From NCBI GenBank assembly GCA_035706365.1, contig DASSVD010000236.1:1526-65525 (forward strand): 64,000 bases of DNA. The letters are read 5' to 3'. The notes beneath the pieces are model-generated. The model searched no databases and was not told the origin of the DNA. It worked only from the letters and a program-made list of their open reading frames with translations. Position numbers and translations under genes: made by a program. Source of the stretch: Nocardioidaceae bacterium. Lineage in GTDB: Bacteria > Actinomycetota > Actinomycetes > Propionibacteriales > Nocardioidaceae. Positions 52,779-56,847 of the stretch are shown here, piece by piece (position 1 is the stretch's first letter; each line of letters starts with the position of its first letter).

Positions 52779-53507
52779 TCAGGGCTGGCGCGGCGGCGTC
52801 CCGAACGGGCTGGTGGACTGCAGGCTCAGCAGTCGCGAGAGCAACCACACCATCCCGGCCTGCCAGCCGATCGCGACGATCAGCACCAGCGGCCACCAGC
52901 GGGTCATCGCCTCCGAGACGGCCTCGCGCGGGATCGCGGCCAGGCCGTACGTGGGCAGCAGCACCGTGCACCACAGCGCCACCGCGGCGGCCCGGTAGCC
53001 GCGGCTGCGGTCGCGCGGCGGGTCGATCCCGAGGCCGCGCACGTCGTCGGGCGGGTGGTCCTTGAGCATCCGGCGGGTGCTGTCGTAGACCACGGTGTCG
53101 GGGTACGTCGCCTCCAGCATCGCCCGCGCCCGCTGCGCCGACCCCGGGCTCAGCCGGACCCGCAGCGGCAGCGCGACCGCGTCGATGTGCGCCTGGGAGG
53201 CACGGAAGCCCCTGTCGCCGAGGATGCACCGCCCGCGCACCGAGACCACCGCGCTGGCCGGCCCGAGGGCGACAGTGGCGCTGCCGGGCAGGTACCAGCC
53301 GTAGAGTCCACAGCGGCACTCCGCCGCGGGCGCCGGGTGATCGCCCCCGCGGGCGCACACCGCGTGCTCGACGTCGCTGCTCCAGCGTCCGTTCTCACTG
53401 TGCACCAGCGGGTACAGCCCGTCGGGGCGGAGGTCGAACTGACGGAATCCGCGCAACTCCCCTGGCACCAGGTCCGGACCGGGCAGCCGGCGCCGAGGCG
53501 ACGTCAC
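52779..53507 (-). CDS. Hypothetical protein with C-x5-H-x-AP-x3-CxCG motif and two C-terminal TM helices
   Basis: ELRGFRQF...CARGGDHPAPAAECRCGLYG...VRGRCILGDRGFRA. GTG 53507 overlaps the small-ORF TGA. Confidence 0.7.
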   Translation of the reverse strand: MTSPRRRLPGPDLVPGELRGFRQFDLRPDGLYPLVHSENGRWSSDVEHAVCARGGDHPAPAAECRCGLYGWYLPGSATVALGPASAVVSVRGRCILGDRGFRASQAHIDAVALPLRVRLSPGSAQRARAMLEATYPDTVVYDSTRRMLKDHPPDDVRGLGIDPPRDRSRGYRAAAVALWCTVLLPTYGLAAIPREAVSEAMTRWWPLVLIVAIGWQAGMVWLLSRLLSLQSTSPFGTPPRQP

Positions 53508-53626
53508 GACGGCGCGGGTGCCGGCTCCGGCTGCTCCTGCTCGGTCCGGCGGTCAGGCTCCCGGGGTGGAATGTCCGGAAGCGGCTCGAACTCGACCTCG
53601 CGGCGCTCTGTCCCGATGTTTCCCAT
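53504..53626 (-). CDS. 40-aa acidic/Pro-rich small protein (not in the ORF track)
   Basis: MGNIGTERREVEFEPLPDIPPREPDRRTEQEQPEPAPAPS*. AGGAG upstream; GTGA coupling to the next gene. Confidence 0.65.
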   Translation of the reverse strand: MGNIGTERREVEFEPLPDIPPREPDRRTEQEQPEPAPAPS

Positions 53627-53763
53627 GTGCACCACCCCGCTCCTGCGCGGTACCGACGGCACCTCACCCTCATGGTCCGATGCCGGGGCGGCGTTGTCGA
53701 GACCCTGCCGGCGCGCCGTGTGAGCGCAGCGATCCGTCGGTGCGATCTGGCAAGCTGCCGGCT

Positions 53764-56700
53764 GTGGAACGGGGACTGTACGAGGCGCTGCTCACCGCCG
53801 GGCTGGAGGATCGCCTCGCGGTCCACGACGCGCTGCAGGCGCACGTCGACGCCGTCGACCTCGCCGACCAGCCGCACGTGCTGGCCCGCCATGTCCACGG
53901 TGCCCTCGAGCGCACCTTGGCGGGCACGAGGGATCCGGCGGCGCGGATCAGGATCGTCAACGAACTGCTGCACCACCTCGACGAGGTCGCGGAGTCGGTG
54001 TCGTCCCCGCCCCGGCAGCTGCTTCAGCTCGTCGACGGCGCGGCGTTCCCGGACGGCACGCCGGCCTCGGCCCGCCCGAGCACCCCGCTCAGCGACGCGG
54101 CGCTACTGACCAACGCGCACGGCGAGCCGAGCCTGGGTGCGGAGCTCCGCGCGGAGCTGGCCTCCGCCGACACCGTGGACCTGCTCTGCGCGTTCGTGAA
54201 GTGGCACGGCCTGCGCCTGCTCGAGGAGCAGCTGGGGCGGTTGCGCCAGCGCGGCGTCCCGCTGCGGGTCGTCACCACCACCTACCTGGGCGCCACCGAG
54301 CGGGCGGCGCTCGACCGGCTGGTGCGTGAGTTCGGTGCCGAGGTGAGGATCCAGTACGACGCCCAGCGCACCCGGCTGCACGCCAAAGCCTGGCTGTTCC
54401 GCCGCCGCACCGGCTTCGACACCGCCTACGTCGGCTCCTCCAACCTGTCCCGGGCGGCACTCCTCGACGGCGTGGAGTGGAACGTACGGCTCTCGCGCGT
54501 GGGCACCCCCGGCCTGCTCGAGAAGTTCCGGGCGACCTTCGACACCTACTGGAACGACCGGTCCTTCGAGCGCTACCACCCCGACGCCGACCGCGACCGG
54601 CTCGACGACGCGCTCGCCGAGTCCTCGGGCCGGTCGTCCTCCGGCCGGGTCACGATCTCGCTGTCCGGCCTGGAGGTGCGGCCCTACGCCTACCAGCAGG
54701 AGATGCTGGAGAAGCTCGACGCGGAGCGGTCGGTCCACGGCCGGCACCGCAACCTGATCGTGGCGGCGACCGGCACCGGCAAGACGGTGATCGCCGCACT
54801 CGACTACCGCCGCCTGTGCAACGAGGTGACCGGCGAGCTCCCGTCGCTGCTGTTCGTGGCGCACCGGCGGGAGATCCTCGAGCAGTCCGTGCGCACCTAC
54901 CGTGAGGTGCTCGCGGATGCCTCCTTCGGCGAACTGTACGTCGGCGGAGCGCGTCCGGAGCGATGGCGCCACGTCTTCGCCAGCGTCCAGTCGCTGACCG
55001 CCTACGGCGTCTCGAACATCCCCGCCGACGCGTTCGACGTGGTGGTGGTCGACGAGTTCCACCACGCCGAGGCGCGGACCTACCGCCGCATCGTGGAGCA
55101 CCTCGCTCCCCGGGAGCTGCTCGGCCTGACCGCAACGCCGGAGCGCGCAGACGGAAGCGACGTACGCGCCTTCTTCGACGGGCGCACCGCCGCCGAACTG
55201 CGCTTGTGGGACGCCTTGGGCGCGGATCTGCTGTGTCCCTTCCACTACTTCGCGCTGGCCGACGGGACCGACCTGCGCAACGTGACCTGGCGACGTGGCC
55301 GCTACGACGAGGACGAGCTGTCCACGGTCTACACCGGCAACCACGCGCGTGCCGCGATCGTGCTCAAGCAGCTGCGCGACAAGGTCGCCGACCCCGGCGC
55401 CATGCGCGCCCTGGGATTCTGCGTCAGTGTCGCGCATGCCGAGTTCATGGCCGAGTGCTTCAACCGCGCGGGAGTGCCGGCGCGCGCGGTGAGCGGTCAG
55501 ACGGGTGCAGCGGACCGAGCGCAAGCCCTCGCCGACCTGCGCGAGCGCCGCGTGAACGTGCTCTTCGCGGCGGACCTGTTCAACGAGGGCCTCGACCTCC
55601 CCGACGTGGACACCGTGCTGTTCCTGCGCCCCACAGAGAGCGCAACCGTGTTCTTGCAGCAACTGGGTCGCGGCCTGCGACGCACGCCCACCAAGCCGGT
55701 GCTCACCGTGCTCGACTTCGTGGGCCACCACCGCACGGAGTTCCGATTCGACACGAAGCTGCGCGCGCTGACCGGGCAGACGCGGCGCGGGCTGACTCGC
55801 GACCTCGAGCGCGGCTTCCCGTTCCTGCCCGCCGGGTGCCAGATCGTGATGGACCGCCAGGCGCAGGCGCTGGTGCTGGAGAACCTCAAGGCGCAAGTGG
55901 CCAACCGGTGGAAGCAGATGGTCGCCGAGCTGCGAGCGTACGGCGACCACGACCTGGCGGGCTTCCTCGCCGAGTCCGGCCTGGAGCTGCCCGACGTGCT
56001 ACGCCGCGGCACCCGGTCCTGGACGCACCTGCGCCGCGACGCGGGCCTGTCGACACCCAGCGGTGCGGCGCTGGAGGAGCGGTTGCTCAGGCGGGTCCGC
56101 GCCTTCACCCACGTGGACGACCGGTCGCGAGCCGAGACATATCGACGCCTGCTCGCCGACGACGCTCCCGACTACGGCGACCTCGAGTCCCCGGAGCAGC
56201 GGATGGCACGGATGCTCTTCTTCTCGCTCTGGCCCGACGGCGGCGGCCACCGCTCGTACGCCGATGGGCTGGCCGCGCTGCGGTCGGAGCGGGCCACCCG
56301 GGCTGAGCTCGCCTCGGTCGTCGACATCTCCTTCGACTGCGCGCGTCATCACCCGGTCGAGCTGGGCGGCCCGCTTGCACACCTCCCGCTGCGGGTGCAC
56401 GCGCGCTACCAGCGCGAGGAGGTGCTGGCGGCGCTGGACTACGCCAGCCTCGAGCGGCGCCCCAACTCCTTTCGCGAGGGCGTGCTCCACGTGCCGGATC
56501 TGAACGTGGACGCGTTCTTCGTGACGCTGGCAAAGTCCGAGGCGGACTACTCGCCGACCACGCTGTACCGCGACTATCCGATCAGCCCGACGCTGTTCCA
56601 CTGGGAGTCCCAGTCGACCACGTCGGTCGGCTCCGCGACCGGGCAGCGCTACCTCACCGGCTCGAGCCAGGTGCTGTTGTTCGTGCGGGAGCAGAAGCAG

Positions 56701-56847
56701 GACGACTACGGAACCGCTCCGTACCTGTTCCTCGGCCAGGCGCATTACGTCGAGCACTCGGGCGACCGGCCGATCGCCCTCACCTGGCGCCTGGAGCACC
56801 CCATGCCGACCGAGTTCTTCACCGCCGCCAGCGTGGCGGCCAGCTGA
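53764..56847 (+). CDS. PLD nuclease-SF2 helicase-DUF3427 protein (SauUSI-like type IV restriction enzyme)
   Basis: RLHAK...YVGSSNLS, ATGTGKT, DEFHH, LTATPER, QQLGRGLR and C-terminal LFHWESQS motifs. CAAGCT -10 box 7 nt before GTG 53764. Confidence 0.85.
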   Translation: MERGLYEALLTAGLEDRLAVHDALQAHVDAVDLADQPHVLARHVHGALERTLAGTRDPAARIRIVNELLHHLDEVAESVSSPPRQLLQLVDGAAFPDGTPASARPSTPLSDAALLTNAHGEPSLGAELRAELASADTVDLLCAFVKWHGLRLLEEQLGRLRQRGVPLRVVTTTYLGATERAALDRLVREFGAEVRIQYDAQRTRLHAKAWLFRRRTGFDTAYVGSSNLSRAALLDGVEWNVRLSRVGTPGLLEKFRATFDTYWNDRSFERYHPDADRDRLDDALAESSGRSSSGRVTISLSGLEVRPYAYQQEMLEKLDAERSVHGRHRNLIVAATGTGKTVIAALDYRRLCNEVTGELPSLLFVAHRREILEQSVRTYREVLADASFGELYVGGARPERWRHVFASVQSLTAYGVSNIPADAFDVVVVDEFHHAEARTYRRIVEHLAPRELLGLTATPERADGSDVRAFFDGRTAAELRLWDALGADLLCPFHYFALADGTDLRNVTWRRGRYDEDELSTVYTGNHARAAIVLKQLRDKVADPGAMRALGFCVSVAHAEFMAECFNRAGVPARAVSGQTGAADRAQALADLRERRVNVLFAADLFNEGLDLPDVDTVLFLRPTESATVFLQQLGRGLRRTPTKPVLTVLDFVGHHRTEFRFDTKLRALTGQTRRGLTRDLERGFPFLPAGCQIVMDRQAQALVLENLKAQVANRWKQMVAELRAYGDHDLAGFLAESGLELPDVLRRGTRSWTHLRRDAGLSTPSGAALEERLLRRVRAFTHVDDRSRAETYRRLLADDAPDYGDLESPEQRMARMLFFSLWPDGGGHRSYADGLAALRSERATRAELASVVDISFDCARHHPVELGGPLAHLPLRVHARYQREEVLAALDYASLERRPNSFREGVLHVPDLNVDAFFVTLAKSEADYSPTTLYRDYPISPTLFHWESQSTTSVGSATGQRYLTGSSQVLLFVREQKQDDYGTAPYLFLGQAHYVEHSGDRPIALTWRLEHPMPTEFFTAASVAAS

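Follow-up and report, generated by a model that had tools for sequence, protein, structure and literature searches.

The stretch of DNA analyzed here (the window) comprises 64,000 nucleotides of contig DASSVD010000236.1 from the genome of a Nocardioidaceae bacterium (assembly GCA_035706365.1, positions 1,526 to 65,525 of the forward strand) and carries, at window positions 52779–53626, two overlapping genes on the minus strand: upstream, a small open reading frame (ORF) for an acidic, proline-rich peptide, and downstream, a large ORF for a basic protein with a Cys/His cluster and predicted membrane helices. By comparative sequence evidence, the pair is a genuine two-gene unit that is always co-inherited and is present in numerous soil Actinomycetota and also in a few phages of these bacteria. 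The small ORF (53504..53626, minus strand) starts with ATG at 53626 and runs through 40 codons to TGA at 53504 (sequence MGNIGTERREVEFEPLPDIPPREPDRRTEQEQPEPAPAPS), while the large ORF (52779..53507, minus strand) starts with GTG at 53507 and encodes 242 amino acids. The TGA stop of the peptide gene and the GTG start of its partner overlap as GTGA. A G-rich stretch resembling a Shine–Dalgarno sequence, AGGAGCGGGG, lies 8–18 nt 5′ of the small-ORF ATG, and the large gene has no obvious Shine–Dalgarno sequence. An earlier interpretation made from the letters of the window alone (hereafter, the sequence-only reading) had described a 40-codon ORF with its own Shine–Dalgarno sequence whose stop codon overlaps the start of a 242-residue ORF, and the sequence confirms this arrangement. 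The products carry opposite charges: the peptide has an isoelectric point (pI) of 4.4 and a net charge of −5.5, with 9 Pro among its 40 residues, and the large protein has a pI of 9.7 and a charge of +7.9.

The peptide (within 53504..53626, minus strand) is built from a 17-residue conserved N-terminus, MGNIGTERREVEFEPLP, and an acidic tail of variable sequence in which Pro, Ala, and Glu prevail. The conservation of the N-terminus, which the sequence-only reading had singled out as worth checking, is nearly complete: residues 1–17 follow the pattern MG[DN]IGTERREVEFEPLP with hardly any departure, while the partner proteins are only 47–73% identical. In codons 2–17, the entropy is 0.24, 0.15, and 0.96 at the first, second, and third positions, respectively, and synonymous codons are used freely, Gly at residue 2 being encoded by four different codons and Arg at residue 8 by five. 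Such concentration of the variation at third codon positions indicates that the peptide is translated and is under purifying selection. In the 48 loci compared, the peptide length ranges from 36 to 73 amino acids, all the length differences being multiples of three; the tails over these 48 peptides consist of 31% Pro, 17% Ala, and 14% Glu, and an ATGA or GTGA overlap with the partner gene is retained in 39 of the 48. As judged from this pattern of substitutions and length changes, the small ORF is a genuine translated gene, far beyond what chance would produce.

The peptide ORF is called by gene finders in three of the loci (L088, L092, and L093) and left uncalled in two others (L094 and L095), and the named public records of the peptide, such as WP_182481499.1, bear the label ‘hypothetical protein’. 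Comparison with Pfam, NCBIfam, PHROG, and PADLOC gave no family match for the peptide, apart from weak chance matches in PHROG. It has no DNA-binding domain, its whole makeup being the 17-residue motif and the Pro/Glu tail. Two sequences listed in the cluster of the peptide (P0413 and P0415) were set aside as unrelated, since they are aminotransferase-like. The longest peptide was observed in the metagenome-assembled genome (MAG) of an uncultured bacterium (L061, 2248–2469), where it has grown to 73 amino acids by tandem VEPEP/VQFEPVEPEP repeats in the tail; this ORF stops with TAG and does not overlap the partner gene.

The association of the two genes is strict. The large protein has 367 close homologues, all annotated as ‘hypothetical’, and is found in 11 of 24 genomes of the same genus; all 11 of these loci have the peptide ORF immediately before the large gene on the same strand. 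Among 51 loci from named genomes, which include Nocardioides gansuensis, N. caldifontis, N. koreensis, N. immobilis, and N. antri, as well as MAGs of Nocardioidaceae, Frankiales, Mycobacteriales, and Oryzihumus, upstream sequence is available for 50, and in every one of these the peptide ORF directly precedes the large gene. When 41 related genomes were searched with the peptide profile, strong matches (E ≤ 1e-10) were obtained in exactly those 12 that contain a close homologue of the large protein. One remote homologue of the large protein among the 41 genomes has a weaker peptide match directly upstream, and three further marginal matches lie inside long Pro-rich frames and appear spurious. 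Thus, the proposal of the sequence-only reading that an uncharacterized two-gene system with a partner peptide is present here has held up both at the 50 loci and in the co-occurrence across genomes. In the genome of the window, each gene is present in one copy, and no further copies of the peptide were found when this genome was searched.

The pairing extends well beyond the close family. In a soil subfamily that is 30–35% identical to the window protein, a peptide of the form MGNIGKERRRIEVLPLP...EPAPAK is encoded upstream in at least 58 of the 70 metagenome loci with enough upstream sequence. Remote genomic homologues are preceded by a similar peptide in 6 of 8 loci (e.g., M.LPGPSRRI.VEP..PE and GDIGEGQREWEFEPLEVP), and a related peptide likewise lies upstream of the homologue in loci L087 and L088. 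In an IMG/VR viral contig (L083), a peptide beginning with MADVGDPVREVTFEPLEEP overlaps the gene of a 267-residue homologue by ATGA. In the tree, sequences are grouped broadly by taxon, with no obvious rampant transfer. On the evidence of the sequences, both ORFs are shown to be under purifying selection, always inherited together, and nearly always overlapping.

Two individual cases deserve mention beside these counts. On a 46.7-kb phage-like metagenome contig (L090, 4636–5004), the ATGA-overlapping upstream gene encodes a protein of 122 amino acids instead of a micropeptide, and its N-terminus, TGTTIEILEFGEDGE, is loosely like the strand motif of the peptide. A cluster representative of 261 amino acids (P0137) has an N-terminus, VVLEPLPEHPTPEPAP, which resembles the end of the peptide motif followed by the tail and runs directly into the large protein.

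The large protein consists of an N-terminal domain (residues about 9–160; 53028..53483, minus strand), which is rich in β-strands and probably cytoplasmic, and of a C-terminal membrane part. A profile search of 1.84 billion cluster representatives (clustered at 50% identity) gave 2,440 matches at E ≤ 1e-3 and 468 at E ≤ 1e-10, and since most of them cover only profile positions about 9–160, it is the N-terminal domain that forms the conserved unit. The motifs quoted in the sequence-only reading, ELRGFRQF, C51-x5-H57-x6-C64-x-C66-GLYG, and VRGRCILGDRGFRA, are all present, and the two C-terminal transmembrane helices are predicted from hydrophobicity and the first structural model. An alignment of 142 diverse homologues shows no variation at C51, C64, and C66 and at least 90% conservation of H57; the remaining invariant or near-invariant positions are R19, R22, R102, W42, and some Gly and Ala residues. 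A Cys3His set is typically a structural zinc site, and the conservation of C51-x5-H57-x6-C64-x-C66 (53310..53357, minus strand) suggests that these residues may bind zinc. No conserved Glu, Asp, Ser, or Lys, nor any conserved His besides H57, was found across the 142 homologues, and the lack of a conserved acid, Ser, or Lys makes an enzyme unlikely.

The first transmembrane helix is predicted at residues about 173–193 (52929..52991, minus strand; Kyte–Doolittle window above 1.6) and the second at residues about 204–227 (52827..52898, minus strand), where W204, W205, P206, W215, Q216, and R225 are conserved, W205, P206, W215, and Q216 being invariant within the close family. The first model is helical at 168–190, overlapping helix 1, and in the region of helix 2 as well. 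Helix 1 is preceded by a positively charged stretch, RDRSRGYR, and the charges flanking the helices would fit a hairpin with both termini in the cytoplasm. Taken together, these features point to a membrane-anchored protein whose N-domain is probably cytoplasmic and zinc-binding. The C-terminal part varies among the homologues, which may have one, two, four, or many membrane helices or long extensions; the phage homologues have no membrane segment. Such variation of the membrane anchor suggests that the N-domain is the functional core of the protein. One remote homologue (L025; G350:C1) has, in place of the membrane helices, a GcvH-like segment and an SCP2 lipid-binding domain attached to the N-domain; a peptide beginning with LPGPSRRIRVEPLRLPEP is encoded upstream of it.

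An AlphaFold2 model of residues 1–168, built with the 142 diverse homologues, reached pLDDT 88.3 and pTM 0.83 and shows long antiparallel strands and three helices. A Foldseek search of the PDB with this model found no solved match (best E 0.27, TM-score at most 0.25), nor did an earlier model (pLDDT 69) match any PDB fold. A sequence-profile search of the PDB with the large protein gave nothing, and Pfam, NCBIfam, and PADLOC contain no match to it, the PHROGs giving only weak chance matches; when 10 long remote homologues and all the 142 members of the alignment were compared with Pfam, only weak families in the membrane regions appeared. The statement of the sequence-only reading that the protein could not be assigned to any named family has thus been upheld against family libraries and against PDB sequences and folds.

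True homologues of the N-terminal domain were identified in Streptomyces phages, namely gp216 of BRock and gp5 of GiJojo, both annotated as ‘hypothetical protein’. They were found by tblastn with the homologue from the viral contig L083 as a query (E 3e-17 to 7e-11); the model of BRock gp216 superimposes on that of the window protein with a Foldseek TM-score of 0.76 (E 1e-11), and both phage proteins share with the window protein the motifs C...H..P...CxCG[IL]Y[AG] and G.V..G..GFRAE.A.I. At the same time, BRock gp216 and GiJojo gp5 lack both the upstream peptide and the membrane helices, and the relationship does not extend to their C-terminal halves. By both sequence and fold homology, the window protein belongs to an uncharacterized ‘BRock gp216-like’ Cys3His domain family that has no database name.

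A promoter-like motif, CTCGACA-N17-GAC[GC]ATGG, precedes the small ORF in 37 of 48 loci, the window included. In the window, the −35-like element TCGACA (53695..53700, minus strand), which is the core of CTCGACA, is followed 17 nt further on by the −10-like element GACCAT (53672..53677, minus strand), and this spacing is fixed across the loci. A position weight matrix (PWM) built without the window scores the window site at 26.8, as against about 15.3–15.6 for the next-best site of the genome, and a PWM scan of this genome found no second strong site. Since the only strong site is at the pair, the motif would represent a module-specific promoter and not a regulon; the promoter function and the transcription start are both predicted from the motif. 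In five loci, the start codon lies 6–7 nt past the −10-like element, so near that their transcripts would be leaderless. The predicted 5′ untranslated region of the pair in the window includes a 15-nt palindrome that is nearly perfect (53649–53663; GGTGCCGTCGGTACC on the minus strand); it is located past the −10-like element and before the start of the peptide gene. The runner-up site in the genome (G000 contig C26, about 2155–2200; CTCTCGACAGG...GGCCATGG) stands directly before a glyoxalase/VOC-like ORF and is probably a chance match.

In the window, the convergent neighbor of the pair is a DUF2237 gene, past which lie recC, recB, and recD, so that the pair is near recC; the divergent neighbor encodes a SauUSI-type type IV restriction enzyme (PADLOC mREase_IV, E = 0). 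The sequence-only reading had named both the SauUSI-like gene and the nearby recBCD genes correctly, but the linkage to a defense island that it raised as a possibility finds no support, because the neighbors of the pair are ordinary and unconserved genes. In 10 relatives, no SauUSI-like, recC, or DUF2237 gene was found at a distance of up to 8 kb from the pair, and other neighbors are common only to sister genomes. Moreover, 150 flanking genes from 50 loci belong to 135 different Pfam families, none of which appears more than three times and most of which serve ordinary metabolism, and only 2 of these 150 genes match any PADLOC model (E ≤ 1e-10). Residency of the pair in defense islands was rejected on these grounds. 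A link to recBCD was rejected as well: it is confined to the window and to one more locus (L094, 6001–6726), where the pair is flanked by recC on one side and recB/recD on the other, with 2-oxoacid dehydrogenase genes also present, and is absent from the other loci. L094 is on the same contig as L037, which sits in the window’s own clade, and its recC adjacency is best taken as shared ancestry of position, since it belongs to that clade. In another locus (L093, 5282–5758), a 158-residue protein with a ScoMcrA_N domain is encoded directly upstream of the pair. On present sequence comparisons, the module appears to be autonomous: the promoter motif accompanies the pair, and the neighbors do not. 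Rfam and simple scans of the locus gave nothing relevant.

It may be supposed that the peptide is a docking/regulatory or neutralizing subunit of a membrane-tethered zinc-domain protein, loosely antitoxin-like. We favor this explanation tentatively, considering that, taken as a whole, it falls a little short of an even chance of being right. Under this scheme, the two genes would form a self-contained operon with its own conserved promoter-like motif, and translational coupling through the GTGA overlap would ensure that both proteins are made together. The Cys3His N-domain, probably zinc-binding, would reside in the cytoplasm and be held at the membrane by the C-terminal helical hairpin. The 17-residue N-terminus of the peptide, with its alternating strand-like pattern, would dock on the β-sheet domain, and the Pro/Glu-rich tail would stay extended and disordered. 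The peptide may thereby regulate or neutralize a domain that binds a ligand and is not catalytic. Zinc binding, the membrane topology, the binding of the peptide to the domain, and any inhibitory role of the peptide are putative. A two-subunit complex would fit the overlap of the genes, their co-inheritance, the selected strand-like motif, the opposite charges, the binding-type domain, and the variable anchors; binding would be preferred over catalysis because Cys/His, Arg, and Trp account for all of the conserved polar residues.

Several observations weigh against a docking and neutralizing peptide. Its near-invariance is unlike that of typical antitoxins, which evolve fast; no DNA-binding domain is present in it; and the module, of which there is a single copy, is not enriched near mobile or defense genes. 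BRock gp216 and GiJojo gp5, which have no peptide, indicate that the domain can work alone. Finally, P0137 is the sole candidate for an in-frame fusion of the two proteins, and it may be either a true fusion or an artifact of assembly or of a contig edge.

In having a peptide of no more than 50 amino acids encoded together with a membrane protein, its presumed target, the pair resembles the small-protein regulators of the MgrB, AcrZ, and KdpF type. MgrB, AcrZ, and KdpF are hydrophobic membrane helices, whereas the window peptide, which is acidic, Pro-rich, and soluble, would have its binding site on a cytoplasmic domain. Another relevant comparison is provided by the ZAS anti-sigma factors RsrA and RslA, which are likewise actinobacterial and combine a cytoplasmic N-terminal Cys/His metal-binding domain with C-terminal membrane helices. 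In contrast to them, the window protein bears the motif C-x5-H-x6-C-x-C in a β-rich domain, not HxxxCxxC in a helical anti-sigma domain, it has no Pfam match, and no sigma family is enriched among the neighbors of the pair.

In the first rival explanation, the large protein would require the peptide structurally, as a subunit or a chaperone-like partner, and no inhibitory logic would be involved; the complex would perform some accessory membrane-associated function, such as lipid or envelope sensing. Extreme purifying selection on the peptide and its strict co-occurrence with the large protein agree with such a role, as do the ordinary metabolic character of the flanking genes, the grouping of the tree broadly by taxon, and the remote homologue that carries GcvH-like and SCP2 lipid-binding domains instead of the membrane anchor. 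However, about half of the species of the genus do without the pair, which is consequently dispensable, no functionally linked neighbor is conserved, and copies exist in phages. We consider this explanation unlikely on balance, while still giving it serious weight.

The second rival is a true toxin–antitoxin or abortive-infection pair, in which the large protein would be a growth-inhibitory membrane protein neutralized by a labile acidic peptide, and loss of the peptide, e.g., upon phage takeover, would free the toxin. As in type II toxin–antitoxin systems, a small acidic upstream gene overlaps (by 4 nt) a larger basic one, the distribution is patchy (11 of 24 genomes of the genus), the chromosomal location is variable with unconserved surroundings, and relatives exist in phages; moreover, the large protein of the close family never occurs without the peptide, and the pair adjoins a type IV restriction enzyme in the window and the ScoMcrA_N protein in L093. 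On the other side, the window peptide differs from type II antitoxins in having only 40 residues and no DNA-binding domain (helix-turn-helix, ribbon-helix-helix, or AbrB) and in being much more conserved than its partner. The large protein belongs to no toxin superfamily by the Pfam, NCBIfam, PADLOC, and PDB sequence and fold searches, no toxin or antitoxin match was obtained for the pair in PADLOC, Pfam, or NCBIfam, and the N-domain has no conserved catalytic residues. The membrane part differs between subfamilies, each genome has one copy of the module, and only the 2 neighbors out of 150 mentioned above match a defense model. All this makes a true toxin–antitoxin or abortive-infection pair rather improbable.

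A third explanation gives the small ORF the function of a leader peptide or regulatory upstream ORF, whose translation or nascent chain would control translation of the large gene, the free peptide having no role. The stop/start overlap and the lack of an obvious Shine–Dalgarno sequence before the large gene imply termination–reinitiation, some loci appear leaderless, and a Pro-rich tail could slow ribosomes. Nevertheless, the conserved N-terminus sits 20–55 residues away from the stop codon, and the varying length of the tail leaves no fixed geometry of the nascent chain at this codon; selection at the amino-acid level on the 17 residues exceeds what coupling alone would need. A mere leader function is therefore very improbable.

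The weakest rival takes the large protein for an enzyme (ADP-ribosyltransferase-like or a zinc-dependent effector) or for a maturase that modifies the peptide as a precursor of a ribosomally synthesized and post-translationally modified peptide (RiPP): the Cys/His cluster and the division of the peptide into a conserved N-terminal ‘leader’ and a variable C-terminal ‘core’ might suggest this, but H57 is the only conserved His across the 142 homologues, Glu, Asp, Ser, and Lys are absent from the conserved residues, there is no match to an ADP-ribosyltransferase, peptidase, or maturase fold or profile, and no other biosynthetic genes lie near the pair, so that its probability is close to negligible. 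A RiPP precursor with its maturase is specifically disfavored because the large protein has no Pfam domain, neither a maturase nor an RRE domain, and the low-complexity Pro/Ala/Glu tail has no conserved Cys, Ser, or Thr and no recurrent patterns of them. The same alignment decides the fate of two suggestions of the sequence-only reading: an ADP-ribosyltransferase fails because no acidic residue is conserved, the catalytic Glu (ExE/QxE) and the R-S-E or H-Y-E triad of this fold having no counterpart, since no Glu, Ser, or Tyr is invariant or near-invariant, and no such fold occurring among the PDB matches, and a catalytic zinc-dependent effector is not supported, given the lack of conserved Glu, Asp, Ser, and Lys.

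By every family, fold, defense-model, and literature test made, the module stands outside the known kinds; in the literature, nothing relevant was found on either protein, on their motif, or on DUF7666. The latter family, which is found in phages and giant viruses, and T4-type rIIB, annotated as a protector of membrane integrity, showed a weak fold likeness to the window protein when Foldseek was run against the BFVD predicted viral models, with several rIIB and DUF7666 models among the matches (TM-score 0.35–0.43 over about 100 columns, E 2e-3 to 0.15). The hhalign comparison of the window family with T4 rIIB gave a probability of 0.1, and no DUF7666 Pfam match was found among the 142 family members; since the profile comparison with T4 rIIB is negative, this likeness is a lead only.

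The pair might define a new actinobacterial and actinophage module of conflict or regulation, in which a previously unseen zinc-stabilized, membrane-tethered fold is switched by a docking micropeptide with an acidic tail of the polyproline type, e.g., a new mechanism of toxin–antitoxin or abortive-infection action or a switch that works by membrane sequestration of a conserved cellular target also captured by phages; this broader proposal is speculative, and we hold it to be more doubtful than probable by a wide measure. If the peptide does act as a switch or antidote for a membrane-tethered zinc domain, the pair would add a two-component module of a new kind, together with a new fold, and if it is a simple structural subunit, the family is still new and worth naming. 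The N-domain represents a large family (2,440 clusters, from soil Actinomycetota and some actinophages) with no Pfam model and no solved relative, and the 17-residue N-terminus of the peptide, better conserved than nearly all of its partner, offers a clean, testable case of a bacterial micropeptide.

Finally, the long open frame of the restriction enzyme (53518–56847, plus strand) begins inside the peptide gene, which is encoded on the other strand. In this frame, the match to PADLOC mREase_IV begins only at residue 184, so that the true start of the enzyme is probably far downstream; the divergent intergenic region would then probably hold the promoter motif of the pair.

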